Shown: positions 2,606 through 63,504 of the stretch, one piece after another
Layout of the letters: each line of letters opens with the position of its first letter
How positions within the stretch are numbered: position 1 is the first letter of the stretch
NCBI GenBank assembly: GCA_964555735.1
Contig: CAZKTS010000129.1
Coordinates: 624-64,623 of the forward strand
Source: an uncultured Bifidobacteriaceae bacterium
GTDB lineage: Bacteria > Actinomycetota > Acidimicrobiia > IMCC26256 > PALSA-555
Direction: 5' to 3'
Length of the DNA: 64,000 nt
Notes under the pieces: generated by a model
What the model was told of the DNA's origin: nothing
Database searches by the model: none
Seen by the model: only the letters and a program-made list of their open reading frames with translations
Program-made: the position numbers and the translations under genes

Positions 2606-3239
2606 CGGCGGCGAAGCCGGCCCGATCGAGGGCGATCTGGAGTCCGTCGTCGTCGTGGTGGATGTCGAGCGACGGGCAGAAGTGGAGCTCGCCGTCGAGC
2701 ACGAACGTGGGCGAGCCGGGGACGCCGAGCGCGCGACCGTGCTCGAGCTCGGCGATGACCTCGGCGCGATCAGCGGCATCCGGGTACGGCAGCCCGTACT
2801 CGTGCGCGATCGCGTCGAGGTGCCGTGGCATGGAGATGTCGACGCCACGCTCGAAGAGGGCCGCGCGCAGCGCAAGGTTGACGCGTTCGCCGGTGGCGGC
2901 ATCGACGTGCGCGGCGTGCGCCGCGAGCGCCAGCGCCGGCAGCGAGGTCAGGGGCCACGTGTTCGGGTCGAAGCCGCGGAACAGCTCGGGCGCCACCGCA
3001 CGTCGGAGTGCTTCGATGTCCGCGGCCGCCGTGGTCGCGGCCAGCGGTGCCCCGTTCACCAGCTCGAGCGGCCAGGCGCGCACCCGCAAGAGCGGGCGGG
3101 ACTGACCGAGCGCGCTCCGACGGTCGACGAGGCGGCGCAGCCCGACGTACGCGAACGGGCAGACCACGTCCGCGTAGACGTCGACGACATCGGGAACCGG
3201 AGGGGCTGCGGCGTCGTCGCGCGGCGGCGTCGCGCTCAC
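2577..3239 (-). CDS. DsbA-family thioredoxin-fold oxidoreductase
   Basis: 220-aa ORF. N-terminal VVDVYADVVCPFAYVG matches the DsbA/2-hydroxychromene-2-carboxylate isomerase-like Cxx motif region. GTG start overlaps the upstream stop (GTGA). Confidence 0.7.
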   Translation of the reverse strand: MSATPPRDDAAAPPVPDVVDVYADVVCPFAYVGLRRLVDRRSALGQSRPLLRVRAWPLELVNGAPLAATTAAADIEALRRAVAPELFRGFDPNTWPLTSLPALALAAHAAHVDAATGERVNLALRAALFERGVDISMPRHLDAIAHEYGLPYPDAADRAEVIAELEHGRALGVPGSPTFVLDGELHFCPSLDIHHDDDGLQIALDRAGFAAVTRRLFGPD

Positions 3240-24894: not shown

Positions 24895-24928
24895 GCTAGG
24901 ACTCCACAACGTCCAGCCAGACTCATCG

Positions 24929-26296
24929 TCACCGCTCGATGACGACGAGCGGTGTTCGCAGCGAGTGGTGCATCCACAGGCCGCCCGCCGGGCCCGAGGT
25001 GCCGTGGTGGGCGAGGACCAGATGGCCGCCGGGCCCGGCCGGGAGCTCACCGCGCATGCGGCCGCGGTGGACGGTGACCACCACGTAGCACGAGACCAGC
25101 AGGAGCACGCCGCCCATGCACCCGACGGTCGCGAACACGTTCATCGCCTCCGTGAGCCCGCTGAACACGAGGCCGCCGAGCGGGGCCAGGACGCTGAACA
25201 CGATGCCGTAGATCGCGAACACCTGGCCTTGGGACTCATCGGGGGCGTGGATCTGGAGGATGGCGCTGATCACCGACTGCGCGAGCGAGAGTGCCAGGCC
25301 GACGGGCAGGAGCGAGATGGCGATGAGCACGTAGAGCTCTGCCCCGTTCAGCGCGGCGCCACCGATGCCGAAGAGCACGAACGCGATCGAGCACAGGAAG
25401 AACGACGACTCGACGATCGTGGCGCGGTCGAGGAGTCGCTGCACCCGGGTGATGACCCACGCAACGGTCACGCCGCCGAGGGTGTAGCTGGCCGTCACGA
25501 AGCCGAGCGTGGTCGCGCCGGGCTCGATCTCACGTGCGATCGCGGGAAGGAGCTGGACGACGGGGATCGCCAGCACGGCGAGCAGTGCGACGTTGCGGAT
25601 CGCGCGGCGGAGCGGAGGATTGCTGCGCACGACAGCGAAGGTGCGCCGCAGGTCACCGCGACCGTACGCACGCCCCCGGGTTGTGGTCTGCTCGGGCCGC
25701 GTGCTCGCGATGACGACGATGAGCGGCACGAAGCTGAGCGCGTCGACGACGAACGACGTCGTCGCGCCGATGGTGGCCACGATCACGCCACCGGCCACGG
25801 CGCCGATCAAACCGGCCACGGACGACATCGACGAGAAGAGCGCGTTCACCGCAGCGAGCTGGTCACCAGGGATGAGGTCCTTCTCGTACTCCTCCCACGC
25901 CGGGAAGACGAGCGCGCTGAGCGAGCCGGCGACGAAGGACGCGACGAGCAGCCAGTTGGCATCGAGCACCCCGGCGAAGCTCATGGCCGCGATGGCCACG
26001 TAGGTGGCCGCCTTCGCGCAGCTCAGCCCGACGAGCAGCCGCCGCCGGTCGTGCCGGTCGGCGAGATGCCCGGCCCAGCCGCTGAGGACGGCGGCCGGGA
26101 ACGTGTACGCAGCCGTGACGAGCACCGTCCGGACCAGCGACCCTGTGGTCCGGTAGGTGACGAACGTGATGGTGATCGCGACGATCCCGCTGCCCAGCGC
26201 CGACACGAACTCTGCCCCCGCGAGGCGCCGGATCCTGCGGTCGCGCAGCAGGTCCCGGATGCCGGCGGGCGTGCTCCCCTTCGTCCCGCCGGCCAC
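24929..26296 (-). CDS. MFS transporter (EntS/efflux-like)
   Basis: 455 aa, 12-TM pattern, N-terminal RIRRLAGAEFVSALGSG typical of this MFS subgroup. Confidence 0.85.
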   Translation of the reverse strand: MAGGTKGSTPAGIRDLLRDRRIRRLAGAEFVSALGSGIVAITITFVTYRTTGSLVRTVLVTAAYTFPAAVLSGWAGHLADRHDRRRLLVGLSCAKAATYVAIAAMSFAGVLDANWLLVASFVAGSLSALVFPAWEEYEKDLIPGDQLAAVNALFSSMSSVAGLIGAVAGGVIVATIGATTSFVVDALSFVPLIVVIASTRPEQTTTRGRAYGRGDLRRTFAVVRSNPPLRRAIRNVALLAVLAIPVVQLLPAIAREIEPGATTLGFVTASYTLGGVTVAWVITRVQRLLDRATIVESSFFLCSIAFVLFGIGGAALNGAELYVLIAISLLPVGLALSLAQSVISAILQIHAPDESQGQVFAIYGIVFSVLAPLGGLVFSGLTEAMNVFATVGCMGGVLLLVSCYVVVTVHRGRMRGELPAGPGGHLVLAHHGTSGPAGGLWMHHSLRTPLVVIER

Positions 26297-29111: not shown

Positions 29112-29245
29112 GCCCGCTCCTGTCGTTCGACGCCTACGGTCGAGGAAGACATCGATACTGACAGAGCTGAAGGGGTCTGTGCCGAGCGACGCTTCGAGCA
29201 CCTCGGCGGACGTGCGGGGGGTAGTAGTAGGGACGCGAGTAGGGA
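29112..29245 (-). repeat. Decayed third copy of the tRNA-like repeat element (copy C)
   Basis: Retains AGTAGGGA-CGCG-AGTAGGGA (29226..29245), CCCCCGC, and GATGTCTTCCTCGACCGT (compare GAATGTCTTCCTAAACCGT in A/B). The T-arm is degenerate. The element ends at the AGGAG SD/ATG of the oxidoreductase. Confidence 0.6.
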
Positions 29246-29260
29246 AGGTCAGCGCGTGGT

Positions 29261-29659
29261 TCAGTCGAACCGGACGCGTTCGCGGAGCCACTCCGCGAGC
29301 CACGCCTCGTCCACGTCGTGTGCTGCGACTGCGAGCATCGCTGCTTCGGCGTCGTCGACATCGGGCGGGTCCGGATCCCAGGTCCCGTCGTTGAGGTCGA
29401 CGAAGAGGGTGAGCGCTGCCCAGGCCGCGCGCTTGTTGCCGTCGGGCAGCGGATGGTTCCAGGACAGTCGGCAGGCGAGAACTGCTGCCTTGTCGAAGAG
29501 ATCCGGGTAGAAGTCCTCGTCACCGAAGCCGGCGCTGGGTGCGTGGAGCGCAGAGTCCGCGAGCTCGACGCGTGCTGCTTTCAGCAGCACCGTGGCGTTC
29601 GTGCCGGTGACCTGTTCCGCCAGCCAGAAGTACTCGGCCAGCGACAGGTATCGGGTCAC
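29261..29659 (-). CDS. doc: Doc (death-on-curing) / Fic-family toxin
   Basis: 132 aa with HPLPDGNKRAAW (Doc variant of the Fic motif). ATGA overlap with the upstream antitoxin. Confidence 0.85.
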   Translation of the reverse strand: MTRYLSLAEYFWLAEQVTGTNATVLLKAARVELADSALHAPSAGFGDEDFYPDLFDKAAVLACRLSWNHPLPDGNKRAAWAALTLFVDLNDGTWDPDPPDVDDAEAAMLAVAAHDVDEAWLAEWLRERVRFD

Positions 29660-29865
29660 TTCGCGAGTCGGTCCAAGAGCTCCTGGTCGCGCTCGATCAG
29701 CCGCCGGGCGCGCGTGGTGAAGTCCTTGTCCTCCTTGACCTTGGCGATCTCGGCCTCGAGGGACTCGACGATGAGGGCGTTGACGCTGGTGCCGCGCACT
29801 CGGGCGACGGCCTCGGCCTCGTCGGCGAGGTCGTCGGGGAGCCTGACGGTGGTCTGCTTGGCCAT
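29656..29865 (-). CDS. Ribbon-helix-helix antitoxin (Phd/CopG-like)
   Basis: 69 aa. MAKQTTVRLPDDLADEAEAVARVRGTSVNALIVESL is a typical RHH N-terminus. Confidence 0.75.
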   Translation of the reverse strand: MAKQTTVRLPDDLADEAEAVARVRGTSVNALIVESLEAEIAKVKEDKDFTTRARRLIERDQELLDRLAK

Positions 29866-30378: not shown

Positions 30379-30543
30379 GCGCCCCCGGGAGGATTCGAAC
30401 CTCCGCACACGGTTTAGGAAGACATTCCCGACCGTCCAGCCAGACTCATCGCGTCCAGCACGTGTTGTCCTGTCTCAGGGTACGTCCACCTGGCGACATC
30501 GAGTGTCGTAGCGAGCGGGGAGTAGTAGGGACGCGAGTAGGGA
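30379..30543 (-). ncRNA. tRNA-like repeat element copy A (direct repeat + acceptor-like helix + T-arm); function unknown
   Basis: Minus strand reads TCCCTACT-CGCG-TCCCTACT-ACTCCCCG...ACGGT-CGGGAATGTC-TTCCTAA-ACCGT-GTGC-GGAGG-TTCGAAT-CCTCC-CGGGGGCGC. It is homologous along its whole length to 58266..58432. Confidence 0.55.
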
Positions 30544-30572: not shown

Positions 30573-31034
30573 TCACGACCGAACACTCCATGAAGATTCA
30601 TCGGTTCGCGCCGCCGTAGCGGAGGTCTTGCGACCACGACGCGTGATCACTCGTTGGCGCTTTTCGGGAGGACCTTCCGACTCCAGGCGACCGCACCACA
30701 GCGCGCGCTCACCGAGCTCGAGCACCAGGGTGAGATCGAGCCGACGGTTCGCGACCCGTCGTGAGGGCCTTCGGCGCGCTTCGGCGAGCTTTCGGCGTTG
30801 CGGACGCGTGGTCGTCGGCACACGGCCCACGTGGATGCCCGCGCAATATGGGCATTCGTACGGTTCGGCAGACGAGCCGACGATCGGTTGCACGAAGCTG
30901 TTCCACTCGATCGCCTGGTGTGCCTCTTCGAGCGAGGCGTAGGTGTGCTTGCGCCCACAGGCGGACCACTTTCTGCGTCGCTCACGCCGGCTGACCCGGC
31001 TGCTGCTCGGTGCATCCCGCGCGGAGGTGGTCAC
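30573..31034 (-). CDS. Arg-rich Cys/His (zinc-ribbon-like) protein, paralog 1
   Basis: 153 aa from a GTG. Paralog of 60212..60640, differing mainly by synonymous third-position changes. TACGTT (-10-like) lies exactly 7 nt upstream of the GTG and there is no SD, which suggests a leaderless mRNA. Confidence 0.65.
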   Translation of the reverse strand: MTTSARDAPSSSRVSRRERRRKWSACGRKHTYASLEEAHQAIEWNSFVQPIVGSSAEPYECPYCAGIHVGRVPTTTRPQRRKLAEARRRPSRRVANRRLDLTLVLELGERALWCGRLESEGPPEKRQRVITRRGRKTSATAARTDESSWSVRS

Positions 31035-31133
31035 GAGGGGAAACGTAGAAAAGAGGTGAGACACCCAAAGGCGAATGTATGAGGTGCGAACGGCAGTTCC
31101 GACGAGTCGCGTAACACGGGTATATTCCGGACC

Positions 31134-35925: not shown

Positions 35926-36672
35926 TCAGAGGATCTCGCAGGACTCCCGATAGGGGTCGAGGCGGGTATCGCTCGGGTTGAGCTCGGTCACCAAGACGTC
36001 GATCGCTGCGAGCTCGAACGTCCGTGCCGGTGCGCGGCTGCCCAGCTTCGACGAATCCACCGCGAGGACGACCCGCGTGGCCGATGCGGCGAACGCGATC
36101 TTCACCTCGGCCTCGGCGAGCGATGCCTCACTGGACCCGAACGTCGGGTCGATCGCGGCGGCGCTGACGAAGAGCGTGCTGACCAAGATCTCCCGGGCAG
36201 CTCGGACCGCGAGGGGCCCGACAAGGCTTCCGGTTCGGCGGTCGAGCTCACCCCCGGTGAGGAGCGCGGTGACACCCGAGCGTTCGTGGAGCACCTTGAA
36301 CGTCTCTGGGCCATTGGTGACGACGGTCAGGTCGTGCGCCCGTTCCAGGCGAGTCGCGAGCCGTTGCAGCGTCGACGAGGCGTCGATGCCGACCGCGCCG
36401 CTGGCCGGCACCATCTGGTCGAGCTTTTGCCCGATCGCCGACTTGGCTCGAGCGTGCTCGCGCGATCGCGTGCCGAACTCCTGCGGCGCGATCGCGACGG
36501 CGCCGCCGCGCACGCGTCGGGCGACTCCCTCGTCGGACAAGAGCTCCAGGTCCCGACGGATGGTCATCTCGCTCACTCGCAGGTCCCGCGCGAGCTCGCC
36601 GATGCGGACGTGCCCGTCCCGCTCCAGCGAGGCCCGGATCAGGTCGAGACGATCGAGTGCGTCGACGTTCAT
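35926..36672 (-). CDS. DeoR-family transcriptional regulator
   Basis: 248 aa. N-terminal HTH (IGELARDLRVSEMTIRRDL) plus a DeoR C-terminal sugar-phosphate sensor domain. Confidence 0.85.
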   Translation of the reverse strand: MNVDALDRLDLIRASLERDGHVRIGELARDLRVSEMTIRRDLELLSDEGVARRVRGGAVAIAPQEFGTRSREHARAKSAIGQKLDQMVPASGAVGIDASSTLQRLATRLERAHDLTVVTNGPETFKVLHERSGVTALLTGGELDRRTGSLVGPLAVRAAREILVSTLFVSAAAIDPTFGSSEASLAEAEVKIAFAASATRVVLAVDSSKLGSRAPARTFELAAIDVLVTELNPSDTRLDPYRESCEIL

Positions 36673-37997
36673 CGAGGTACGAGGTCGCTCGTGCCCGCGG
36701 CTCGCGCCTCGTCGAGCGACCGGTAGACGCCGAGGGCTACACCTTGGGTGAGGGCGTTCCCGAGCGCGCTCGCTTCGAGCGGTCCGAGCCGCACCGGGAG
36801 TCCGCTTCGCTCGAGGAGGCGTTGGGTGAACAGGCCCGGGCGCGCGCCGCCGCCGAAGACGCGGATGCCTGATGCTGGCTCGAGCTCCGTGACGAGGCGC
36901 GCGGTGGTGTCGACCATGGACTCGACGATGGCACGTGTGACCACTGCCGGCGCGGCATCCGCGGGAAGGCCGGCTGCCGCGCGGATCTCGGCCGCCATGT
37001 CCGCCGGCGCGAGGAACCGGTCGTCGGTCGTGTCGAACGGCTGCCCCGCGGAACGGACCGACGCGGCCGCGGCGAGGAGCTCAGGGACGCCGGTACCGCC
37101 CCACGCGCGACGGCATTCGTCGAGCAGCCACCATCCCGCGGTGTTGCGCAGGAAACGGACCGCGCCGAAGGTGCCCTGCTCGTTCGCGAACCCAGAACGT
37201 CGGGCAGCTTCGGTTGTGTCCCACGCCGACTGCTCGCGGCCGACGAGCATCCACGTGCCTGTCGACAGGAAGACCTCGCCGGACGCACCGCCCGCGACGA
37301 CGGCCGACGCGGTGTCATGGCCGCCGACGAGGCGGACCGGCGTCCCGCCGAACTCGATCGCCCGCCCGACCAGGGTGCCTGGCTCCTGGATGTCGGGCAG
37401 CAGCTCGGCGTCGAGACCGATCGCATCGCAGAGCTCGGCCGACCAGCCCCCGCTCCGGAGGTCGAAGAGCGACGTCGTCCCTGCGGAGGTGCGCTCGGCC
37501 ACGACGGCGCCGGTCAGCTCGTGGGCGAGGAGCTCGGGCAGCATCAACACGTGGCGGGCGAGGGCCATCTCGGTCTCGTCGTGCGCGGCGAGCTGGAACA
37601 GCGTGTTGATCGGCGAGAGCTGCAGTCCGCTGATCTCGAACAGTCGACGCTCGCCGATCCGCTCCGCCACGGTCCGGTAGCCCGACGTCCGCGCGTCGCG
37701 GTACGACCACGGTGACGCGACGAGCTCGCCCGCCGCGTCGAGCAGTCCGTAGTCGACGCCCCACGTGTCGATCCCGATGGACTCGACGGGCCCGTGCTCG
37801 AGCGCGGCCGCGATGCCGTCGCGCATCACCGTGACCAGGCGGGGCCAGTCCCAGCGCAGGCCGCCGTGGGCATCCCGCACCGGATGGTGCTCGGCGCGGG
37901 TGACAACGCGGAGGGCGACGTGGTCGGCGTCGAGCTCGGCACGGCAGATCCGTACGGACGCCGCACCGAAATCCACCGCGACGACGGGCGTCGTCAT
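36669..37997 (-). CDS. rhaB: Rhamnulokinase (FGGY carbohydrate kinase)
   Basis: 442 aa. VAVDFGAASVR N-terminus and FGGY layout. Sits in an operon with the rhamnose isomerase and aldolase. Confidence 0.8.
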   Translation of the reverse strand: MTTPVVAVDFGAASVRICRAELDADHVALRVVTRAEHHPVRDAHGGLRWDWPRLVTVMRDGIAAALEHGPVESIGIDTWGVDYGLLDAAGELVASPWSYRDARTSGYRTVAERIGERRLFEISGLQLSPINTLFQLAAHDETEMALARHVLMLPELLAHELTGAVVAERTSAGTTSLFDLRSGGWSAELCDAIGLDAELLPDIQEPGTLVGRAIEFGGTPVRLVGGHDTASAVVAGGASGEVFLSTGTWMLVGREQSAWDTTEAARRSGFANEQGTFGAVRFLRNTAGWWLLDECRRAWGGTGVPELLAAAASVRSAGQPFDTTDDRFLAPADMAAEIRAAAGLPADAAPAVVTRAIVESMVDTTARLVTELEPASGIRVFGGGARPGLFTQRLLERSGLPVRLGPLEASALGNALTQGVALGVYRSLDEARAAGTSDLVPR

Positions 37998-38001
37998 GGG
38001 T

Positions 38002-39294
38002 CTAGAGGCCGGTCGCCAGGGCGTCGCTGCCGCGAGCGTCGATCGCGTCCCGCCGGTAGCCGCTCGCGCGGAACGTCGCGAGCGGGTGCAGCGCGGCGCC
38101 GTTGCGCCGGCGAGCCTCCGCGACGAGCGGTCGCACGTCGAAGCGGAACGCGTCGGCGAGCAGCTCTGCAGCCATGGCCGGGTCCGTCGCGTCCTGGTAG
38201 TCGCGCAGTCGGGCGCGATCGACCAGGAGTGCTTGCGCGAGCGTGACCTGGATCTGGTCGGTGGCCTGGATCAGGTCCTCGATCGGGTCCTTGAGGTTGT
38301 GAGAGGCGTCGATCATGTAGCTCAGCGCGGGCAGGGCACCGCCGCCGACCTCGACGAGCTCGAGGAGGATCAGGAAGAACTGGTACGGGTTGATCGAGCC
38401 GACGGTGAGGTCGTCGTCGCCGTACTTCGAGTCGTTGAAGTGGAATCCGCCGAGGCGTCCGGTCATCGCGAGTCGGCTCACGACCTGCTCGATGTTGGTG
38501 CCGGGCAGGTGGTGACCCAGGTCGACGAGGCACTTCGCGCGTGGTCCCGCGTGCTGCGCGAGCAGCAGCGAGGTTCCCCAGTCGGGGTTCACGCTCGCGT
38601 AGAACGCGGGCTCGTAGGGCTTGTGCTCGGTGAACATCTCCCAGTCATGGGGGAGCGCGTCGTGGAGCTCGTGGAGGCACTCGGCGACCCGTTCGAACTG
38701 GTCCCGGAAGCTCGCCTGGCCGGGGTGGTTCATGCCGTCGCCGAGCCACACGGTGAGCGCACGGGAGCCGAGGGCGACACCGAGCTCGATGACCTGACGG
38801 TTGTGCTCGACGGCTCGCTTGCGCACATCGGGGTCCGGGTGGGCAAAGGAACCGAACTTGTACGAGATCTCCCCGTCGGCGGTGGTGGACGGGTTGTCCT
38901 GGAAGGTGTTGGAGTTCATCGCGTCGAAGCCGATGCCCGCCGCCAGCGCGTACTCGCGAAGCGCCGCAGGATCGGACGGGTCGTCCCAGGGCACGTGCAG
39001 GCTGACCGTGCGGTTCGCGCCCGTGACCGCATTGAGCGCGGCGACGTCGTCGATCTTCTCCTCGGTCGTCCTCGGCTCACCGCCGCCCGGGAAGCGACCG
39101 AAGCGGGTGCCACCGGTGCCGACGGCCCAGGAGGGAGCAGCCACCGAGAACTCCGCGACCCCGTCGATCACCTGCTCGGCGTCGACCGTGGTCGCCGCCA
39201 GGCGCTCGCGTGCCTGCGCGAGGGCGAGCTCGTGCGCGGGCAGCGCCTCCGCTTCGATCGCGGCGATGGCGTCGGGTCGGATGCTCGGTGTCAT
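38002..39294 (-). CDS. rhaI: L-rhamnose isomerase (xylose-isomerase-like TIM barrel type)
   Basis: 430 aa. FHFNDSKYGDDDLTVGS and HVPWD motifs typical of actinobacterial/Pseudomonas stutzeri-type RhaI. Confidence 0.85.
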   Translation of the reverse strand: MTPSIRPDAIAAIEAEALPAHELALAQARERLAATTVDAEQVIDGVAEFSVAAPSWAVGTGGTRFGRFPGGGEPRTTEEKIDDVAALNAVTGANRTVSLHVPWDDPSDPAALREYALAAGIGFDAMNSNTFQDNPSTTADGEISYKFGSFAHPDPDVRKRAVEHNRQVIELGVALGSRALTVWLGDGMNHPGQASFRDQFERVAECLHELHDALPHDWEMFTEHKPYEPAFYASVNPDWGTSLLLAQHAGPRAKCLVDLGHHLPGTNIEQVVSRLAMTGRLGGFHFNDSKYGDDDLTVGSINPYQFFLILLELVEVGGGALPALSYMIDASHNLKDPIEDLIQATDQIQVTLAQALLVDRARLRDYQDATDPAMAAELLADAFRFDVRPLVAEARRRNGAALHPLATFRASGYRRDAIDARGSDALATGL

Positions 39295-41327
39295 CGGAGG
39301 AAGGCCTGGGCCACACCACCATCCACCGGGATGATGGTGCCGGTCGTGCGGGCAAGGGAGCCATCGACGAGCGCGAGCACCGCGCTGGCGACGTGTTCGG
39401 GGAGCACCTCGAGCCCCAGGAGCGTGCGGGACGCGTAGAAGCCGCCGAGGTCGTCGGGTTCGACCCCGTGCGCGCTCGCCCGCTGCTCGAGCCAGTCGCC
39501 CGAGAAGATCCCGGACCCGCGGATGACCGCGTCGGGGTTCACGCCGTTGACCCGGATCCCGCGCGGACCGAGCTCAGCCGCGAGGAGGCGAACCTGATGG
39601 GCCTGATCTGCCTTCGCTGCTCCGTACGCGATGTTGTCGGGACCGGCCGCCACCGCGTTCTTCGACACGATGTACACGATGTCACCGGGGAGGCCGGCTC
39701 GCGCGATGAGGTCGGCACCGGCTCGACTCACCAGGAACGAGCCGCGGGCGAGCACGTCGTGGAGCCGGTCCCACGACGCGACGGTCGTGTCGGCCAACGG
39801 CGCCGAGTCCGCGAACCCTGCGTTGTTGACCACGATGTCGACACCGCCGAACCGAAGCGCCGTCGCCCGGAACGCGGCGGCGACGCTTGCCTCGTCGCTC
39901 ACGTCGACCGCGACCGCCATGGTTCGGTCCGTGCCGAGGTCTGCGGCCACCTTCTCGGCCCGCTCGACGTCGATGTCGGCGACGACGGTGCACGCTCCCG
40001 CGACGGTGCACGCGGTCGCGATCGCCCGACCGATGCCCGAGCCGGCACCGGTGACGAACGCGACGTGTCCCCGGAGCGGCGGCGCCGGTGGTCGCATGCG
40101 AAGCTTGCGTTCTTCGAGCTCCCAGTACTCGATGCGGAACGCTTCCTGTTCCGCGATCGGGTCGTAGTGTGCGATGGACTCGGCGCCGCGCATCACGTTG
40201 ATCGCGTTGATGTAGAACTCGCCGGCGACTCGCGCGGTGTGTGCGTCGTCACCGAAGCTCCACATGCCGACGCCGGGAACGAGCACGATCGCCGGATCGG
40301 CGCTCCGGATCGCGGGGGAGTCTGCTCCTGCGTGGCGGTCGTAGTACGCGCGGTAGGCGTCGCGGTAGGTCTGGTGCTCCGCGCGCAGCGCGGCGATCTT
40401 CTCGTCGACGGGTGCGGCTGCGGGGACGTCGACGACGAGCGGCCGGATCTTGGTGCGCAGGAAGTGGTCGGGACACGAGGTGCCGAGCCCGGCGAGGCGC
40501 CGCATCTGCTCGCGGGCGAGGAAGTCCAGCACGACGGGCGCGTCCGAGTAGTGGGCGGCGACGAGGCGGTCGGTGCTGGCGAGACCTCGGATGACCGGAG
40601 CGAGTGCGGCAGCCTGCTCGTGACGCTCGTCGTCGGCCAACGGCGCGGCAGAAGGGATGACCGGGCCGAACGGCTCGGCTCGTCCGTGCTCGGCGAGGAA
40701 GTCGTCCGCGCGGGCGACCAGGGCCATGGAGGTCGCCTCGCAGGCCTCGCTCGTCGCACCCCAGCAGATGAGCCCGTGACCCTGGAGCACCGCGCCGATG
40801 AGATGGGGGTGCTCATGGTGGAGATCCCGCAGCGCGACCGCGAGCTCGAAGCCCGGTCGCTGCCAGGGGAGCCAGCCCACGTCGTCGCCGAAGCACGCCG
40901 CGACCACCGACCGGCTGGTGTCGGCGGCGGCCAGGGCGATGACGCTGTCGGGGTGGAGGTGGTCGACGTGGGCGGCGTCGATCAACGCGTGCAGCGGCGT
41001 GTCGATGGACGGGACCGCCCCGCCGGCTCCGAACCGGCAGTGCTCGTAGAGGGGCACGAGCTCGTCTTCCGAGCACTCGCCGAGGCGCTGCTCCAGCGCG
41101 CGGACCCGGTCGAGCGCCAGGAGCGCGAGCCCGGACTCCGTGAGCGTGGCGAGGTCGCCGCCCGAGCCCTTGACCACCAGCACCGAGACCGGGGCACCGG
41201 TGACCGGGTCGTCGACCGTGACCTTCGCGGAGGTGTTCCCGCCCCCGAAGTTCGTGATCCGCCGATCGGCCCCGAGCCGGTGCGAGCGCTCGAGCAGGCG
41301 TTGGACATCGGGACTCATGTGCTTCAC
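39291..41327 (-). CDS. Bifunctional rhamnulose-1-phosphate aldolase / short-chain dehydrogenase (RhaEW-type)
   Basis: 678 aa. N-terminal class II aldolase (NFGGGNTSAK) plus C-terminal SDR (TGAGSGIGRA...YGAAK). Start is GTG 41327 or ATG 41318. Confidence 0.85.
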   Translation of the reverse strand: MKHMSPDVQRLLERSHRLGADRRITNFGGGNTSAKVTVDDPVTGAPVSVLVVKGSGGDLATLTESGLALLALDRVRALEQRLGECSEDELVPLYEHCRFGAGGAVPSIDTPLHALIDAAHVDHLHPDSVIALAAADTSRSVVAACFGDDVGWLPWQRPGFELAVALRDLHHEHPHLIGAVLQGHGLICWGATSEACEATSMALVARADDFLAEHGRAEPFGPVIPSAAPLADDERHEQAAALAPVIRGLASTDRLVAAHYSDAPVVLDFLAREQMRRLAGLGTSCPDHFLRTKIRPLVVDVPAAAPVDEKIAALRAEHQTYRDAYRAYYDRHAGADSPAIRSADPAIVLVPGVGMWSFGDDAHTARVAGEFYINAINVMRGAESIAHYDPIAEQEAFRIEYWELEERKLRMRPPAPPLRGHVAFVTGAGSGIGRAIATACTVAGACTVVADIDVERAEKVAADLGTDRTMAVAVDVSDEASVAAAFRATALRFGGVDIVVNNAGFADSAPLADTTVASWDRLHDVLARGSFLVSRAGADLIARAGLPGDIVYIVSKNAVAAGPDNIAYGAAKADQAHQVRLLAAELGPRGIRVNGVNPDAVIRGSGIFSGDWLEQRASAHGVEPDDLGGFYASRTLLGLEVLPEHVASAVLALVDGSLARTTGTIIPVDGGVAQAFLR

Positions 41328-41353
41328 TGTTTAATCGCACAGGCATCAAACAG
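41327..41353. promoter_or_regulatory. Inverted repeat CTGTTT-N15-AAACAG in the AT-richer divergent region
   Basis: Read directly. Sits at the 5' end of the rhamnose operon, between it and the ABC transporter genes. Candidate DeoR operator. Confidence 0.3.
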
Positions 41354-41553
41354 CAAGATCGCGGGCCGCAAGGTCCTACCAGCTGCTTGCGGAGGGTAGG
41401 TCTGTTCGTTAGCGTCCGATCGCACACGAACGCTCAGGCGTTCGGCGAAGCGCGAGGGGGGAGCGGCGTGGTGCCCAGAACCGTGACGAGCGGGTTGCGG
41501 CGAGAGATAACGCTGGTACATTCCCGCGCTTGCCCGGGGACGGCGGTGCACGC

Positions 41554-43758
41554 GTGACGCAGACGTCGGACGACGCGAGCGCTTCTGACCTCGCGGTCGC
41601 GGTCCTCGACGCCGAGGCCGAGCGCGAGGCGCGCCAAGCCGCCGAACAGCACGAGGTGGTCTTCCCCGACGACCTCCTGCCCGGCGTCGGCGGGCCGCAG
41701 CTCACGCTGCGCGAAGGCCTGCGCGTCGGCGGGATCGCCACGTTCGTCGTGTTGCTCATCCTCGCGTCGCTCGACGAGCTCGAGGCCGCGGCGCTCAGCG
41801 TCCTTGCCCCCGATCTGCGCGACGCGCTCGGCGTGAGCAACGGCACCATCGTCTTCCTCGCCGCGGCGTCGGGTGCCTTCATCGTGCTCGGTGCCCTCCC
41901 GATGGGATGGCTCGCCGATCGCCACCGCCGGCCGCCGATCATCGGCTGGGCCAACATCGCGTTCGCGGCGTTCGTCACCTGCTGTGGACTCGTGACGAGC
42001 GCCTTCCAGCTCTTCTGGGCGCGTCTCGGTGTCGGCATCGCGAAGTCGAACAACATCCCCGTGCACTCGTCGTTGATCGCGGACACCTACCCGATCACGG
42101 TGCGCGGCCGCATCAGCGCCTCGATGGCCATGGGCGCGCGTCTCGTCGGCGTCCTGAGTCCCGTCCTGGTCGGCGGCATCGTCGCATTGGCCGGCGGCGA
42201 CGACGCCTGGCGGTGGCCGTTCCTCCTGCTCGGGTTCCCGGTGGCGATCGTCGCCCTCTTCGCCTTCAAGCTCCGCGAGCCGCCGCGAGGCCAGTTCGAG
42301 ATGCAGGACGTCCTCGGCGAGGTCATCGACGACGCGCAGCCCGCCCCGATCTCCGTGGAAGCGGCGTTCGCCCGCCTCTGGCAGATCCGGACGATCAAGA
42401 CCGTGATCGTCGCGTTTGCCGCGATGGGCTTCGGTCTCTTCACCGGCCCGGTGCTCGCGAACCTCTACATGGACGAGCACTTCGGCACGAAGGCCTTCGA
42501 ACGAGGCGTGCTCGGCACCGTCGGCGGTCTCGGGGTGCTGCTCGTCCTCCCGTTCGTCGGACGCCACTACGACCGGCTGTACCGCCGAGACCCCGCTCGC
42601 GCGCTGGGTCTGCTGGGCATCGTGATCCTGCCGGCAGCGTTGCTCGCACCCGTCCAGTACTTCATGCCGAACGTCGTGCTGTTCACGATCCTCGGCATCC
42701 CGCAGCTCATCCTGTTGACGATCTCGTACACGATGGTCGCGCCCGTCTTGCAGTCCGTCGTCCCGTACCGCCTGCGCGGCATGGGCGCGGCACTGGGTGC
42801 GATCTACATCTTCTTCATCGGCGCCACGGGCGGAGCGCTGCTCTCGGCCCTGCTCACCGACGAGTTCGGTCCCCGGGTCGCGGCCCTCACGCTCGTCATC
42901 CCGTCGACGCTGATCGGTGGCTTCCTGATCATTCGCGGCGCGTCGTTCATCAAGAACGACCTCTCCCTCGTCGTCGCCGAGCTCCGAGAGGAGCTCGACG
43001 AGCACCAGCGTCAACAAGCTGCCCCCGATGACATCCCGGCACTCCAGGTGAACGACATCGACTTCGCGTACGGACCCGTCCAGGTGCTCTTCGACGTCGA
43101 CTTCGAGGTTCGACGGGGTGAGGTCCTCGCGCTCCTCGGCACCAACGGCGCCGGGAAGTCCACGCTCCTGCGTGCCATCGCCGGACTCGGGACGCCGGCG
43201 CGCGGCGTCGTGCGACTCCACGGGCGCACGATCACGTACACGACCCCCGAACAGCGCGCCCGGATGGGTATCCGGATGCTGCTCGGCGGCAAGGGCGTCT
43301 TCCCTGCGATGACGGTGCGGGAGAACCTCGAGATGGCCGCGTTCGTCTACCGGGACGACCGCGACGACTTCGACCGGCGGCTGCGCCGCGCCGTGGACCT
43401 GTTCCCGACGCTCGGCGACAAGCACGGCGCGCTCGCGTCGACGCTTTCCGGGGGCCAGCAGCAGATGCTCGCCCTCGCGATGACGCTCCTGCACGATCCG
43501 GAGGTCCTCGCGATCGACGAGCTCTCCCTCGGGCTCGCGCCCGTGCTCGTCCAGGAGCTGCTCTCGGTGCTCGAGCGCCTCAAGGCCGAGGGGATGACGA
43601 TCATCCTCGTCGAGCAGTCGCTCAACATCGCCCTCTCGGTCGCCGACCGCGCGGTGTTCCTCGAGAAGGGCCAGGTTCGATTCAGCGGCCCCGCCGGCGA
43701 TCTCGTCGGCCGTGACGATCTCGCGCGCGCGGTGTTCCTCGGCACGGAGGGCGGCTAG
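41554..43758 (+). CDS. Fusion: MFS-type membrane domain + LivF-like ABC ATPase
   Basis: N-terminal ~460 aa is multi-TM with MFS motif A (GWLADRHRRPPI). C-terminus has GTNGAGKSTL (Walker A), LSGGQQQMLAL (signature) and LAIDELSLGL (Walker B). GTG start 41554 (alternative 41530). Confidence 0.8.
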   Translation: MTQTSDDASASDLAVAVLDAEAEREARQAAEQHEVVFPDDLLPGVGGPQLTLREGLRVGGIATFVVLLILASLDELEAAALSVLAPDLRDALGVSNGTIVFLAAASGAFIVLGALPMGWLADRHRRPPIIGWANIAFAAFVTCCGLVTSAFQLFWARLGVGIAKSNNIPVHSSLIADTYPITVRGRISASMAMGARLVGVLSPVLVGGIVALAGGDDAWRWPFLLLGFPVAIVALFAFKLREPPRGQFEMQDVLGEVIDDAQPAPISVEAAFARLWQIRTIKTVIVAFAAMGFGLFTGPVLANLYMDEHFGTKAFERGVLGTVGGLGVLLVLPFVGRHYDRLYRRDPARALGLLGIVILPAALLAPVQYFMPNVVLFTILGIPQLILLTISYTMVAPVLQSVVPYRLRGMGAALGAIYIFFIGATGGALLSALLTDEFGPRVAALTLVIPSTLIGGFLIIRGASFIKNDLSLVVAELREELDEHQRQQAAPDDIPALQVNDIDFAYGPVQVLFDVDFEVRRGEVLALLGTNGAGKSTLLRAIAGLGTPARGVVRLHGRTITYTTPEQRARMGIRMLLGGKGVFPAMTVRENLEMAAFVYRDDRDDFDRRLRRAVDLFPTLGDKHGALASTLSGGQQQMLALAMTLLHDPEVLAIDELSLGLAPVLVQELLSVLERLKAEGMTIILVEQSLNIALSVADRAVFLEKGQVRFSGPAGDLVGRDDLARAVFLGTEGG

Positions 43759-46592
43759 TGGTCCTCGCGACGACGTGGATCACCGAGCAGCTCGTCTTCG
43801 ACGGCGTGATCACCGGTCTCGTGATCGGCCTCCTCGCGATGGGCATCGTGCTCATCTATCGCTCGACGCGCGTCATCAACTTCGCGGTCGGGAACATGGG
43901 ACTGGTCGGAGCGAGCCTTCTCGCGATCTTGTCGATCAACTACGGCGTCCCGTTCTGGATCGCGGCGATCGTCGCCCTCTTCGTCGGCACGCTCTTCGGC
44001 GTCGCGATGGAGCTCATCGTCATCCGGCGCTTGTTCTTCGCGCCGCGTGTCATCGTGCTCGTGGCCACCATCGGGATCTCCGGCCTCGCGCTCGCGATCG
44101 TCACTGCCTATCCGGAGCTCGACAGCTTCTCGTCCGGATATCCGGTGGCGACCGACACGATCTGGAGCGATGTGGCCGGTGTGCGGATCACCGGCCCGCA
44201 GCTCTCCGTGCTCGTCGCGGTCCCGATCGTCACGCTGGTCCTCGGCTGGTTCCTCAACCGCACCTTGCTCGGCAAGACGGTCAAGGCGTCGGCCGAGAAT
44301 CCCGACCTCGCCCGTCTCCAAGGCATCAACCCGAAGCTCGTCTCAACCGCGGTGTGGGCCATCGCCGGCTTCCTCGCGACGCTCACCATGATCCTCGTCG
44401 CCGGCCAGAGCGGCTCTGCGACCGACCTCGTCACGCTCGGTCCCAACACGCTCGTCCGTGCGCTCGCCGCGGCGGTGATCGCCGGGATGGTCTCGTTCCC
44501 CCGAGCCATGTTCGCCGGCGTCGCGATCGGGATCGTTCAAGCCGTCATCGGCTTCAACTACCTCGACAAGCCCGGCCTCATCGACGGGTTGCTCTTCGTC
44601 GCGATCCTGATCGCCGTCGCGGTCCAGAGTCGCCACGGTCGCCAAGAGACCCAGACCTTCGCGTTCACGCCGAAGGTGCGAGCGATCCCCGACCAGCTGC
44701 GGGATCTGTGGTGGGTGCGCCACCTCAACCGGATCGTCCTCGGCGCGCTCGTCGTCGTCGCGATCCTCGTGCCATTGGTCATCACCGCCCCGTCGCGACA
44801 CCTCCTCTACGCGACGATCGGGGGCTTCGCGATCTGCGCGCTCTCGCTCACGGTCCTCACGGGATGGGGCGGCCAGCTGTCGCTCGGGCAGATGGCGTTC
44901 GCGGGCATCGGTGCGCTCACCGCCGCCGCCCTGACTCGTGGGTTGGAGCTCGATCTCGGCGTCGTCAACCTCGAGCTCGGGGGCTTGCCGTTCCTCGTTT
45001 CGATCCTTCTCGCGGCCATGGTCACCGCAGCGTTCGCGGCGCTCATCGGGCTCGGCGCGCTCCGAGTCCGAGGGCTCTTGCTCGCGGTCAGCACCTTCGC
45101 GTTCGCGGTCGCGGCCCAGCAGTACCTCTACCGCCAGCCGGTGTTCTCGGACGGCTCCTCGTCGACCGTGGCGTTTCCTCGCGGGACGCTGTTCGGTCTC
45201 GACCTCTCGTCGCAGCGCTCCTACTACTACGTCGTCCTCGCCGTGTTGGTCCTCGCGGTGCTCTTCGTCAGCCGGCTTCGGCGGACCGGGATCGGACGCA
45301 CGACGATCGCGGTGCGCGACAACGAGGACAGCGCAGCGGGGTACACCGTCTCGACCGCGGTGACCAAGCTGCGCGCGTTCGCGATCGCCGGCGGTCTCGC
45401 GGGCGTCGGAGGCGCGCTCCTCGCCGGCGCACTCGAGAGTGTGCCGTTCACGGAGCGGTTCTTCCTCGTCGGCGACTCGCTGCTGCTCGTGTCGATCGTC
45501 GTGATCGGCGGGATCGCGTCGCCGATGGGCGCGGTCCTCGGCGCGCTCTGGGTGATCGGTCTGCCGGCGTTCTTCCCCGACAACAACCTCGTGCCGCTCT
45601 TCACCTCGAGCATCGGGCTCCTGGTGCTCCTGCTCTACTTCCCGGGCGGCTTCGTCCAGATCGCGTACGCGACACGAGATGCGTTCCTGGCCTGGGCCGC
45701 GCAGCGGACCCAGGCACCGACGCAGCCGCGTCAGGTCGAGACCCCGGCGATGCTCCGCCGTGCCCCCGACCCACTCCCGGAGGGCATCGCCGCGCTCGAG
45801 GTCCGCGACGTCCGGGTGCGCTTCAGCGGCATCGTCGCCGTCGATGGCGCCTCCATCACCGTGGGGGCCAACGAGATCGTCGGTCTGATCGGGACGAACG
45901 GCGCGGGCAAGTCGACGCTGATGAACGCCATCGGAGGCTTCGTCCGATCGACGGGCACGGTCACGCTGCTCGGCCAGGACGTCTCGCGACTGTCATCCGC
46001 GCAGCGCGCGCGGCGGGGGCTCGGCCGCACGTTCCAGGCTGCCCGCCTCTTTCCCGAGCTGACCGTGCGCGAGACGATCGAGGTCGCACTCGAAGCCCGG
46101 GGACGTACCGGCTTCCTGGGCACTTCCCTCTGCCTTCCCCGTGCCACCGCGCGCGAGCGAGCTCGGCACGCGGAAGCCGGAGAGCTCGTGGCGTTCCTCG
46201 GGCTCGGTCGCTACGCGGACGCCCGCATCGCGGACCTCTCGACGGGCACTCGCCGGATCGTCGAGCTCGCCGGCCTGCTCGCGCTCGATGCGCGCGTCTT
46301 GTGCCTCGACGAGCCGACCGCAGGGCTCGCGCAGCGCGAGACGGAGGCGTTCGGCCCGCTGATCGCGGAGATCCGCCGCGAGCTCGGAGCCTCGATGCTC
46401 GTCATCGAGCACGACATGCCGCTGATCATGGGCATCAGCGACCGGGTCTACTGCCTCGAAGTCGGCAAGGTCATCGCGGAAGGCCTTCCCGACGTCGTGC
46501 GGCACGACGTCAAGGTCGTCGCGAGCTACCTCGGCACCGACGAGCGAGCGATCGCTCGCAGCGGTGCCGCAACTGATGGCACGTCAACCTGA
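43758..46592 (+). CDS. Fusion: LivH-like + LivM-like permeases + LivG-like ABC ATPase
   Basis: 944-aa single ORF. Two branched-chain-type permease domains, then GTNGAGKSTLMNAIGG...LSTGTRRIVELA...LCLDEPTAGL. Its start overlaps the previous stop by 1 nt. Confidence 0.85.
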   Translation: MVLATTWITEQLVFDGVITGLVIGLLAMGIVLIYRSTRVINFAVGNMGLVGASLLAILSINYGVPFWIAAIVALFVGTLFGVAMELIVIRRLFFAPRVIVLVATIGISGLALAIVTAYPELDSFSSGYPVATDTIWSDVAGVRITGPQLSVLVAVPIVTLVLGWFLNRTLLGKTVKASAENPDLARLQGINPKLVSTAVWAIAGFLATLTMILVAGQSGSATDLVTLGPNTLVRALAAAVIAGMVSFPRAMFAGVAIGIVQAVIGFNYLDKPGLIDGLLFVAILIAVAVQSRHGRQETQTFAFTPKVRAIPDQLRDLWWVRHLNRIVLGALVVVAILVPLVITAPSRHLLYATIGGFAICALSLTVLTGWGGQLSLGQMAFAGIGALTAAALTRGLELDLGVVNLELGGLPFLVSILLAAMVTAAFAALIGLGALRVRGLLLAVSTFAFAVAAQQYLYRQPVFSDGSSSTVAFPRGTLFGLDLSSQRSYYYVVLAVLVLAVLFVSRLRRTGIGRTTIAVRDNEDSAAGYTVSTAVTKLRAFAIAGGLAGVGGALLAGALESVPFTERFFLVGDSLLLVSIVVIGGIASPMGAVLGALWVIGLPAFFPDNNLVPLFTSSIGLLVLLLYFPGGFVQIAYATRDAFLAWAAQRTQAPTQPRQVETPAMLRRAPDPLPEGIAALEVRDVRVRFSGIVAVDGASITVGANEIVGLIGTNGAGKSTLMNAIGGFVRSTGTVTLLGQDVSRLSSAQRARRGLGRTFQAARLFPELTVRETIEVALEARGRTGFLGTSLCLPRATARERARHAEAGELVAFLGLGRYADARIADLSTGTRRIVELAGLLALDARVLCLDEPTAGLAQRETEAFGPLIAEIRRELGASMLVIEHDMPLIMGISDRVYCLEVGKVIAEGLPDVVRHDVKVVASYLGTDERAIARSGAATDGTST

Positions 46593-46611
46593 TCTCGATG
46601 AAAGGAACGTC

Positions 46612-47847
46612 ATGCGAAAGCTGATCGGAGCGTGCACCGCGCTCGTTCTCGTCCTGGGGAGCGTCGGCATCGCCGGCGCGTCGGCCCCGACGCAGAGCAC
46701 GCCCGGTGTCACCAAGGACGACATCAAGGTCGGAGTCACCTACATCGACTTCTCGGAGATCCGAGACATCGTCGACATCGACCACGGTGACTACGAAGCT
46801 GCGTACAACGCGGTCATCGCGGACCTGAACAAGAACGGGGGGATCAACGGCCGCAAGGTCGTCCCGGTGTTCGCTCCGGTCAGCCCGGTCGGCACCGTCC
46901 CGTCCCAGGAAGCGTGCGTCAAGCTCACCGAGGACGAGAAGGTCTTCGCGGCCATCGGCTTCTTCAACCAGGACGCGCCGCTGTGCTACTTGGAGCAACA
47001 CGACACGCCGATCGTGGGCGGCAACATGACGCAGGAGTACCTCGCGCGCGCGAAGGCGCCCTGGTTCTCGGCCGAGAGCGGTGACGGCACCGTCGAGCAG
47101 GTCGTCCAGGCGTTCGCCGACGACGGGGCGTTCAAGCAGAAGAAGCTCGGCATCGTGACGACCGTCCAGGAGAAGGGCGTGCTCGACGACACCGTGCTGC
47201 CGACGCTGAAGAAGAACAAGGTCAAGGGCACCTCGGCGATCATCGATGTCGCCGCCGACGACGTCACGGCCGGCGAGCAGCAGGCCGGGGTCATCGCGGA
47301 ACGATTCGGCCAGGACGGCGTGGACACCGTGCTCGTCGTCGGGAACGCCATCCAGCTGTTCGCGTCGGCCCTCGGGAAGACCGATTACCGCCCACAGCTG
47401 CTGGCGACGAACCAGAACACGTACCTCGGCTACCTGGGGAACCCGGGCCACGACAAGACGGTCCTGGAGAACTCCATCACCGGCGGCGTCGCGGTCGACT
47501 TCAACGAACCCGGCTACCTGAAGTGCAAGAAGCTCGTCGAGAAGGCCATCGGTGAGAAGATCAAGCACCCCGACGATGTGGCTGACGGCGAGAAGGACTC
47601 GAGCGTCTCGACGTCGAACGCCTGCTACAACGTCGCGCTCTTCGCCGCCATCGCGAAGGCGGCCGGCAAGAACCTCACGGTGAAGAGCTTCGGGAAGGCT
47701 GGCGACTCGTTGCAGACGGTCGACCTCCCCGGCTACGGGACCGTCACCTACGACCCGACGACCCGCGCCTACTCCCAGCCGATCTACCTGAACCGGTACG
47801 ACGCCGCCCAAGACGACGTCGTCCAGGACGACCAGCCGGTCGGCTGA
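46612..47847 (+). CDS. Periplasmic-binding-protein type I (LivK-like) substrate-binding protein
   Basis: Signal peptide MRKLIGACTALVLVLGSVGIAGASA, about 411 aa. GAAAGGAA SD. Confidence 0.85.
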   Translation: MRKLIGACTALVLVLGSVGIAGASAPTQSTPGVTKDDIKVGVTYIDFSEIRDIVDIDHGDYEAAYNAVIADLNKNGGINGRKVVPVFAPVSPVGTVPSQEACVKLTEDEKVFAAIGFFNQDAPLCYLEQHDTPIVGGNMTQEYLARAKAPWFSAESGDGTVEQVVQAFADDGAFKQKKLGIVTTVQEKGVLDDTVLPTLKKNKVKGTSAIIDVAADDVTAGEQQAGVIAERFGQDGVDTVLVVGNAIQLFASALGKTDYRPQLLATNQNTYLGYLGNPGHDKTVLENSITGGVAVDFNEPGYLKCKKLVEKAIGEKIKHPDDVADGEKDSSVSTSNACYNVALFAAIAKAAGKNLTVKSFGKAGDSLQTVDLPGYGTVTYDPTTRAYSQPIYLNRYDAAQDDVVQDDQPVG

Positions 47848-47855
47848 GGAGCAAC

Positions 47856-58265: not shown

Positions 58266-58432
58266 TGGCGCCCCCGGCAGGATTCGAACCTGCGCACACG
58301 GTTTAGGAAGACATTCCCGACCGTCCAGCCAGACCACTCGCGTCCAGCGGGTGTTGTCCTGCTTGATGGTAGGTCCATCTGGTGACGGCGAGTGACGTGG
58401 TGTGCGGGGAGTAGTAGGGACGCGAGTAGGGA
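58266..58432 (-). ncRNA. tRNA-like repeat element copy B (direct repeat + acceptor-like helix + T-arm + encoded CCA); function unknown
   Basis: The minus strand ends ...ACGGT-CGGGAATGTC-TTCCTAA-ACCGT-GTGC-GCAGG-TTCGAAT-CCTGC-CGGGGGC-G-CCA. The 5' part is TCCCTACT-CGCG-TCCCTACT-ACTCCCCG. Its T-stem differs from copy A by a compensatory pair. Confidence 0.55.
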
Positions 58433-59178: not shown

Positions 59179-59187
59179 CGGTGTTCA

Positions 59188-60024: not shown

Positions 60025-60035
60025 TGTTCGTCTCC

Positions 60036-60215
60036 TTAGGGCCTGCGCTCGCGGCCGTCGAGATGCAACGTGTCGCCGTCGAGGTGCAGGCGCTTGATCA
60101 CGTGTGGTGCGGCGTGCTCGGCGCAGATCCGAAGGTTCGTATCGGGGTAGAGCGCCGACGAGTAGTTGTTGACCACGTTTGGACAGGCTTCGACCGAGCA
60201 GTCCATGACGATCAT
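60036..60215 (-). CDS. 59-aa Cys/His micro-protein (hypothetical)
   Basis: ATGA overlap with the stop of paralog 2. Has C6-x4-C11...C31-x2-H34. Too short for the ORF track's real-gene cues. Confidence 0.4.
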   Translation of the reverse strand: MIVMDCSVEACPNVVNNYSSALYPDTNLRICAEHAAPHVIKRLHLDGDTLHLDGRERRP

Positions 60216-60640: not shown

Positions 60641-60777
60641 GATGACGACGGTAGAAGCGGGGTGAGACAGTCGAACGACTCTCGCTGCCGGCCCGCCGGT
60701 CCTGGCGTTCGCGAGCCACGCGCGGAAGAGTCTCCCCGGGCCTGCACGGCAACGCCAAAGCCGTCGGCTAGGCAGTT

Positions 60778-61256: not shown

Positions 61257-61419
61257 TCTGTTCGTCGGGATTTCTGGCTTTGGCGGCCCCGACGCGCGCC
61301 GCCTCGACGAACGTACCTCACTGGTCCATTCGCGCGCCGCTCATCAGTGAACGCGACATCCAGGAGGTGCGACTTCCTTTCGCACTCCATCGAACTCTCG
61401 GTGTCTAAGACGACGGAGA

Positions 61420-62353: not shown

Positions 62354-62401
62354 GTCGATCTCCTTTGAGATGAGGCCGAGTGTCAAGTCATCTCGAAGAG
62401 A

Positions 62402-63497: not shown

Positions 63498-63504
63498 AAA
63501 CGAC

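Follow-up and report, generated by a model that had tools for sequence, protein, structure and literature searches.

The window, that is, the whole 64,000-nt stretch of DNA that was analysed, carries two long copies, A and B, of a repeated unit on the minus strand, together with two short fragments of the same unit, C and D. The features of the two loci to which the analyses refer are the following.

30379-30543, minus strand: copy A, arm DNA plus the 3' half of tRNA-Arg(CCU), with no CCA (nhmmer E = 3e-55)
30380-30420, minus strand: tRNA-Arg(CCU) 3' half in copy A, from the anticodon loop to the discriminator (sequence reading, alignment, blastn)
30421-30543, minus strand: arm (P-arm-like) of copy A, with direct repeats and a near-neutrally diverged middle
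58266-58432, minus strand: copy B, arm DNA plus the 3' half of tRNA-Arg(CCU), with an encoded CCA (58266-58268)
29191-29250, minus strand: copy C, decayed, a 5' motif block of about 40 nt with the tRNA part lost (family D13; nhmmer E = 3.8e-5)
24910-24928 (about 24908-24930 in the profile search), minus strand: copy D, a 19-nt exact match to A in the central arm, CGATGAGTCTGGCTGGACG (family D20)
30573-31040, minus strand: Arg-rich small protein paralog 1, start codon uncertain, at the same element end as A
60212-60643, minus strand: Arg-rich small protein paralog 2, in the element ending at B
58456-60230, minus strand: three ORFan cargo genes (240, 280, and 64 aa) with low GC3, between paralog 2 and B
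29261-29865, minus strand: Doc (Fic/DOC) toxin and overlapping ribbon-helix-helix antitoxin, between C and A (Pfam E = 2e-9 for Doc)

The repeat search of the window revealed that A and B form a direct repeat with a spacing of 27,889 nt, and that A (30379-30543) aligns with B (58268-58432; family D2) at 145 of 165 positions (87.9% identity) and free of gaps. The ungapped alignment contained identical runs of 42 nt (30404-30445) and 29 nt (30515-30543), while the 43-nt middle segment (30472-30514) was 70% identical, and thus the description given in the first-pass annotation, an end-to-end alignment with identical end blocks and a middle of about 70% identity, was reproduced, and all its other factual statements held as well. 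Within the tRNA-like part, the two copies differ at 30403 and 30389 only, and these are precisely the two halves of the paired T-stem double substitution noticed earlier, which is truly compensatory (GGAGG/CCTCC in A versus GCAGG/CCTGC in B). The CCA is present in B, where it reads TGG on the plus strand (58266-58268), and A has GCA-TT at that place, confirming that A is devoid of an encoded CCA. Copy A begins 29 nt past the TGA (30573-30575) of the minus-strand Arg-rich ORF, at the distance first reported, and B begins about 23 nt past the TAG of another minus-strand ORF (58456-59178). Next to B, on its tRNA-3' side, an FMN-dependent dehydrogenase gene of native appearance terminates at 58252, at a distance of 16 nt, and the homology between A and B stops exactly at the tRNA 3' end. 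Both copies lie outside the ORFs having the genome codon bias, and no frame on the relevant strand is open in both of them, in accordance with the earlier view of the unit as non-coding. The repeat exceeds chance expectation by far: only 6 instances of TCCCTACT are present in the 64 kb, and all of them stand in pairs within A, B, or C.

The last 41-44 nt of each copy (minus strand) correspond to the 3' half of a tRNA. Read on the minus strand, this core runs through the anticodon loop TTCCTAA (anticodon CCT), the 3' anticodon-stem strand ACCGT, the 4-nt variable loop GTGC, the T arm G[G/C]AGG-TTCGAAT-CCT[C/G]C (GGAGG-TTCGAAT-CCTCC in copy A), the 3' acceptor strand CGGGGGC, and the discriminator G, to which CCA is added in B. 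Neither a 5' acceptor strand nor a D arm nor a 5' anticodon-stem strand was found upstream of the core, and ATGTC, the five bases that precede the anticodon loop, does not form a stem with ACCGT. ARAGORN detected 0 tRNA and 0 tmRNA genes in the whole window, and 0 genes in L007, a JGI metagenome contig that carries a homolog of the unit. No Rfam family reached its gathering score in the window; with permissive settings, the Rfam tRNA model scored 14.5 bits against a threshold of 29, and covered model positions 46-63 only. The term "tRNA-like element", used at first, was therefore too broad, as the whole fold is absent, and of a tRNA the copies contain no more than the T arm and the 3' acceptor strand.

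Several other identities were considered for this segment and rejected. A tRNA gene, or cloverleaf, was ruled out by the ARAGORN result and the sub-threshold Rfam score, only a 3' half being present, and a tmRNA by the ARAGORN tmRNA search and the lack of an Rfam match. A weak match to YrlA (Y RNA-like; 17.8 bits versus 69, E = 0.3) was taken as an artefact of the T arm. The stretch CTCCCCG in the 5' motif was considered as a 5' acceptor strand; it could pair with CGGGGGC in A and B, but the acceptor strand of L007 (CGGCGGC) finds no complement upstream of it.

Alignment of the core with a genuine tRNA-Arg(CCT) showed that similarity starts exactly at the anticodon loop and stops at the discriminator/CCA. 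In blastn comparisons with phage records, the core matched the annotated "core of attP" of the actinophage RP3 (91% over 46 nt) and the attP of the Streptomyces phage VWB (92.5%), and genuine tRNA-Arg genes were matched by the core as well. The alignments with tRNA-Arg(CCT), with the RP3 attP, and with a tRNA fragment of Nonomuraea gerenzanensis agree with the anatomy of an attachment (att) site, i.e., a 3' tRNA portion starting from the anticodon loop and devoid of the 5' part. An att-site origin, which the first-pass annotation had mentioned as the alternative to its own reading, is strongly indicated by this equivalence of the half-tRNA and the actinophage att core.

Upstream of the half-tRNA core lies an arm of about 120 nt. 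On the minus strand, its 5' block reads TCCCTACT-CGCG-TCCCTACT-ACTCCCCGC, which is followed by a variable stretch of about 45 nt, then by GCTGGACGCGA...GGCTGGACGGTCGGGAATGTC, and then by the core. In A, the two copies of TCCCTACT stand at the far end of the arm (30524-30531 and 30536-30543), and CTGGACG is present twice near the core; both pairs are conserved. Pairs of TCCCTACT spaced by 12 nt occur within A, B, and C only in the 64-kb window, and the outer limit of conservation is the outermost repeat. Between A and B, the core-proximal block (42 nt) and the distal block (29 nt) do not differ at a single position, compared with a pS of 0.39 for the adjacent gene, while the middle of the unit, about 30% diverged, is roughly neutral; conservation of the repeat ends far above the neutral rate is thus evident. 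This block-wise constraint is the pattern that would be expected of a protein-binding core and arm sites separated by a spacer, and the arm direct repeats are candidate binding sites for an integrase or accessory proteins. A 12-mer, TCCCTACTCGCG, was additionally observed as about 8 tandem copies in each of two low-GC metagenome contigs (L006, about 1059-1158; L008, about 2801-2900). It is the same unit as the arm motif of A, B, and C, and this is probably a coincidence.

The base composition changes at the repeats. On the tRNA-5' side, GC is 0.62-0.67 at 58-64 kb and 0.64-0.66 at 29-31 kb, compared to 0.72-0.76 for 1-22 kb, and the ORFs on this side fail the filter of GC3 ≥ 0.8 that all surrounding genes pass. 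The tRNA fragment adjoins foreign DNA in both cases (GC 0.62-0.67 and low GC3 at 58.3-64 and 29.2-31.1 kb), as att sites do. Copy A has low-GC DNA on both sides, and the toxin-antitoxin pair sits in a low-GC islet of about 2 kb bounded by C and A. Copy B looks like a true junction between an element and the chromosome, given the native-looking dehydrogenase gene next to its tRNA-3' side; from composition and gene content, it would be the place where native DNA meets a low-GC island that extends from 58.3 kb to 64 kb or further. The ORFs on the tRNA-5' side could not usefully be assigned to any Pfam, NCBIfam, or PHROG family, the sole PHROG match being a marginal one of Arg-rich paralog 2 (E = 0.008) to a family of unknown function.

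Global alignment of the two loci revealed that B 60669-60193 is collinear with A 31063-30578, a segment that comprises the Arg-rich gene and its upstream sequence (82% or more), that about 1.7 kb with the three ORFan genes is present in the B locus only and absent from the A locus, and that collinearity continues beyond this indel between B 58432-58269 and A 30543-30380. Because the loci are collinear across both the Arg-rich gene and the att unit, A and B are homologous ends of related elements. Judged from this alignment, A arose by deletion from an element end like that of B, and the two copies are not independent insertions of the 165-nt unit.

The Arg-rich paralogs are real coding genes under purifying selection (dN/dS 0.15-0.20, dS about 0.55), and their products carry conserved Cys/His residues (C..CxYC..H). 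Members of the family are very rare: 5.8 billion clustered proteins yielded 1 close homolog, a profile search of 1.8 billion representatives yielded 20 hits, and 185,579 species genomes yielded 0 matches; the AlphaFold model of the protein (pLDDT 38) was unusable. A distant relative (L016, 35-442) is located on a contig that also encodes a WhiB-like protein and the large subunit of a terminase, and this member of the family is therefore phage-borne. Another relative (L001, 736-1143) adjoins a ComF-like phosphoribosyltransferase.

The collinearity of the A and B loci, which are paralogs, would also fit a simple segmental duplication within this genome, about 650 bp long and now without a role in recombination, whose blocks are kept alike by gene conversion with each other or with the real tRNA gene; no integrase was found nearby, and the tRNA part could be homogenised against a genuine tRNA gene. 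Such a duplication is nevertheless quite unlikely. Conversion with a tRNA gene cannot yield the perfect 29-nt distal block or the 22 nt of core-adjacent arm, the adjacent gene has reached a dS of 0.55 while the blocks are identical, both blocks and their spacing are kept in L007, which comes from another organism, and both loci are in compositionally foreign DNA.

Other observations were made on the DNA around and between the two copies. A 49-nt piece of the 240-aa ORFan gene (58705-58753) recurs with 88% identity at 61436-61484, 2.7 kb upstream, inside a 75-aa ORF (61344-61571), a recurrence that suggests internal duplication or decay within the 58-64 kb island. The end of the low-GC island (61913-64000) contains copper-related genes, including one for a cupredoxin/plastocyanin-like protein and, by eye and with no Pfam match, the C-terminal part of a P-type ATPase; an adenylate/guanylate cyclase-YHS fusion protein is encoded there at 62832-63497. 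The 27 kb between A and B have native-like codon usage and carry genes for rhamnose catabolism, ABC transport, and similar functions. The rhamnose cluster (35926-50678) consists of a DeoR regulator, an FGGY kinase, an isomerase-like TIM barrel, an aldolase-SDR fusion, and an alpha-L-rhamnosidase, and the ORFs at 41530-43758 (MFS and ABC ATPase) and 43758-46592 (permease and ABC ATPase) look like unusual fusions or mis-joined ORFs. Exact-protein look-ups aimed at extending the locus past 64 kb returned just Logan/JGI contigs of 1-2 kb. One Logan contig, L002 (SRR13076506), is identical to the B locus and breaks off at 2260, after the first 29 nt of the 42-nt block that A and B have in common, which is consistent with a branch in the assembly graph and hence with the presence of both copies in that sample. 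Genes identical or related to those analysed here occur in the SRA runs SRR13076506, SRR13076517, and SRR13076540. An empty site beside the FMN-dehydrogenase gene was not found in relatives, the closest homologs being only 69% identical.

A profile search of the window retrieved A, B, C, and D only, all on the same strand. Copy C is located just past the stop codon of the Doc toxin and retains a perfect TCCCTACTCGCGTCCCTACTACT, and copy D lies directly 3' of the stop of an MFS gene. The copies can be arranged as an erosion series, in which B has the CCA, A is without it, C is reduced to the 5' block, and D to a 19-nt core-proximal piece. An apparent match of C to ATGTCTTCCT was not upheld by local alignment, and C consists of the 5' block of about 40 nt only. 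As C combines a perfect 23-nt motif with the loss of the tRNA part, it must be supposed either that the deletion is recent or that the motif has a function of its own.

Searches with the 19-mer motif against JGI metagenomes returned 8 loci, among which L007 is the only true homolog; of the other seven, five share the 19-mer alone, which is about the number estimated to occur by chance in a database of this size, and two are 12-mer tandem arrays. The 20-mer motif had 0 matches in 185,579 species-representative genomes, and the conserved blocks (20 and 22 nt) had 0 matches in IMG/VR. L007 is thus the one homolog on which the comparative evidence on the unit outside the window rests. In this contig, the 5' block begins 8 nt past the stop of an unrelated 917-aa gene and is followed by a divergent middle and then by the half-tRNA, with both conserved blocks and their spacing kept. 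The anticodon of L007 is CAT, one substitution from CCT, the T stem (CCAGG/CCTGC) has an uncompensated C.C at its first pair, and the acceptor strand is CGGCGGC. At 2955-2975 of the contig, the half-tRNA (…CCTGCCGGCGGCA) is followed by a second stub, CTGCCGGGGGCG, which equals the acceptor end of B, as if att cores were nested.

Four occurrences in 34 kb, each by a different upstream gene (MFS, Doc, Arg-rich, and the 240-aa ORF), and the sharp 5' boundary in L007 behind yet another gene are features that a small non-autonomous mobile repeat would display, MITE- or SINE-like with a tRNA-derived end, inserting itself downstream of genes. This explanation is quite improbable, however, as all copies share one orientation and no terminal inverted repeats or target duplications were seen by eye in the flanks that were read. 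Moreover, the homology of A and B reaches into the Arg-rich gene with a simple 1.7-kb indel, which implies that the unit moved within a larger element; C and D are internal fragments and not full insertions; and the motif and blocks are absent from the species-representative genomes and from IMG/VR, respectively.

Taken together, these results indicate, with a probability of about 0.8, that A and B are attR-type or hybrid att sites of phage-derived integrative elements targeting tRNA-Arg(CCU), some of which are decaying. An element of the tyrosine-integrase type, probably a phage-derived island, would enter the 3' end of a tRNA-Arg(CCU) gene; we infer both the type of recombinase and the order of the integration events. 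In such elements, attP duplicates the stretch of the tRNA that runs from its anticodon loop through its 3' end, and integration restores the tRNA at one end of the element, leaving at the other end the displaced 3' half-tRNA behind the element arm. The 165-nt unit would then consist of the arm (about 120 nt) and the half-tRNA core (41-44 nt), with the direct repeats of the arm bound by the integrase or its accessory proteins. Copy A would be a related element end minus 1.7 kb, contained in the small low-GC islet with the toxin-antitoxin pair, while C and D would be older and more eroded fragments in the same orientation, and the series from A to D would fit repeated integration (accretion) and decay. 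The part of the core located 3' of the crossover in an attR-type junction would come from a tRNA gene that was functional at the time of integration, and the T-stem difference would have been inherited from the functional tRNA-Arg genes, different for A and B, that served as templates of the two cores.

Neither an integrase nor an excisionase was detected in the 64-kb window by motif scan and Pfam analysis of 50 ORFs, and ARAGORN found no intact tRNA-Arg gene in it. The element that starts at B runs past the end of the window, and its far end, the usual place of int, lies outside; the contig from which the window comes measures about 66.6 kb. As the 27 kb between A and B are native-like, no simple island bounded by the two copies is evident; this block may be a captured att-bounded (CIME-like) segment, or the two loci may have been separated by rearrangement.

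The first-pass annotation had argued for selection on RNA or DNA structure. A transcribed tRNA-like RNA, 3'-UTR module, or sRNA was weighed, whose T arm and acceptor-like end would mimic a tRNA, so that tRNA-processing or CCA-adding enzymes would recognise them and the 3' ends of the upstream mobile-element mRNAs would be defined or stabilised. All full copies do start 8-29 nt past the stop of a co-oriented gene, A and B show one compensatory T-stem pair, and CCA is encoded in B. Copy B also folds better than its shuffles (z = -2.19), and RNAalifold applied to A, B, and L007 proposed an 8-bp helix between the 5' motif GCGUCCCU and a 3' G-run beside the T arm. Copy A, in contrast, is indistinct from its shuffles (z = +0.24), its MFE structure is unlike that of B, and the covariation term of the consensus was +2.56, i.e., a penalty; the RNAalifold check envisaged earlier thus gave no support from covariation. 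Variation without compensation, one of the outcomes named beforehand as refuting, was observed: L007 has the C.C mismatch in the T stem, which gives one compensatory and one broken pair across the homologs, and it breaks 2 of the 8 pairs of the long-range helix with no compensation. Copy C keeps the 5' motif without the tRNA part, that is, without the 3' partner, so the helix cannot explain the perfect conservation of the motif in C. Furthermore, the helix recruits the discriminator together with the initial C of CCA, unlike the geometry of a tRNA. There is no cloverleaf, since the unit lacks the 5' acceptor strand, the D arm, and the anticodon stem, and no promoter-like or terminator-like signal is associated with A or B.

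A structured RNA was accordingly rejected, as the single folds and RNAalifold gave no consistent or covarying structure, and a transcribed tRNA-like RNA is very unlikely: only a 3' half, an att-core segment, is present, and the RNA tests were negative. A paired T stem is expected when each copy has been templated by a working tRNA gene, and the compensatory change is better explained by ancestry than by selection on an RNA made from the locus. The variant in which att sites are merely the origin of a 165-170-nt 3'-UTR module, with the half-tRNA closed by the 5' motif and G-run and tRNA-end enzymes protecting the 3' ends of mRNAs, is hardly credible for the same unit.

The feature at A and B is thus probably of a well-known kind and not a new tRNA-like RNA, and att sites at these positions leave current understanding unchallenged. 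The element family, defined by this arm motif and ORFan cargo, is undescribed, with no match in the phage, plasmid, IMG/VR, and species-genome collections searched. The value of the assignment lies mainly in annotation, since the repeats mark the boundaries of integrated and partly decayed mobile elements in the genome of an uncultured member of the Actinomycetota, whose closest relatives at the protein level bear Acidimicrobiia names. As att scars, they explain the low-GC island with ORFan and copper genes (58-64 kb) and the toxin-antitoxin islet (29-31 kb), and the conserved arm blocks become candidate integrase-binding sites of a family targeting tRNA-Arg(CCU). They also call for caution, as a compensatory T-stem change in a half-tRNA is not proof of a new RNA.

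Among the known systems, CIMEs are cis-mobilizable, att-bounded DNA without a recombinase of its own (Pavlovic et al., 2004, cited in PMC3218068). In the window, A and B are likewise att-type repeats in direct orientation, 27.9 kb from each other; an identical block of 42 nt spans the presumed crossover region, and no integrase was found between them. The difference is that the DNA between A and B is native-looking, and that neither a helper element nor an excision product is known.

Actinobacterial elements integrate into the 3' ends of tRNA genes and form tandem arrays at tRNA-Arg, where tRNA remnants serve as att sites (PMC3218068), and accretion with decayed remnants has been described at a tRNA-Arg gene (PMC9513070). 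AICEs and their defective derivatives share with the window copies the integration at tRNA 3' ends, the direct-repeat att remnants, and the occurrence of remnants without mobility genes (PMC3218068; PMC9513070). They differ in that no tra, rep, or int genes were found in the window, that the cargo genes are ORFans, and that the one relative of the Arg-rich protein that is informative sits in a phage-like contig and not in an AICE.

In attP sites of the lambda type, the core is flanked by arms that carry arm-type integrase sites. The window copies resemble this layout in the arm of about 120 nt, the repeat pair at its far end, the second pair near the core, and the poorly conserved spacer. In contrast to it, the core lies in a tRNA gene and not in an intergenic attB, an arm is recognisable on the P side only, and the sites are putative.

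In the attP or attR sites of RP3 and VWB (tRNA-Arg, AGG codon, CCU anticodon), the core is likewise the 3' portion of tRNA-Arg, and its T arm and acceptor strand (GCAGGTTCGAATCCTGCCGGGGGC) match those of copy B at every position. Short direct repeats, comparable to those in the arms of the window copies, precede the core of RP3 by about 60-110 nt. The arm sequences of these phages are, however, unrelated to those of the window copies, the anticodon-stem and variable region differs (ACCGTGTGC against AGCGGGTGTC), the core of RP3 reaches further 5', into the anticodon stem, and the window copies are without an adjacent integrase.

The record of Nonomuraea gerenzanensis (NZ_LT559118.1) contains an intact tRNA-Arg(CCT) and, 25.8 kb downstream of it, a direct-repeat 3' fragment, which has the anticodon loop as its first part and for which no tRNA is called (L013, 2969-3042; L014, about 2990-3045). 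The record, labelled as a plasmid but of 11.85 Mb, contains 4-5 such places. One or more integrated elements are probably present at tRNA-Arg in this organism, and the intact gene and its fragment form a standard attL/attR pair, whose breakpoint is the same as that of A and B.
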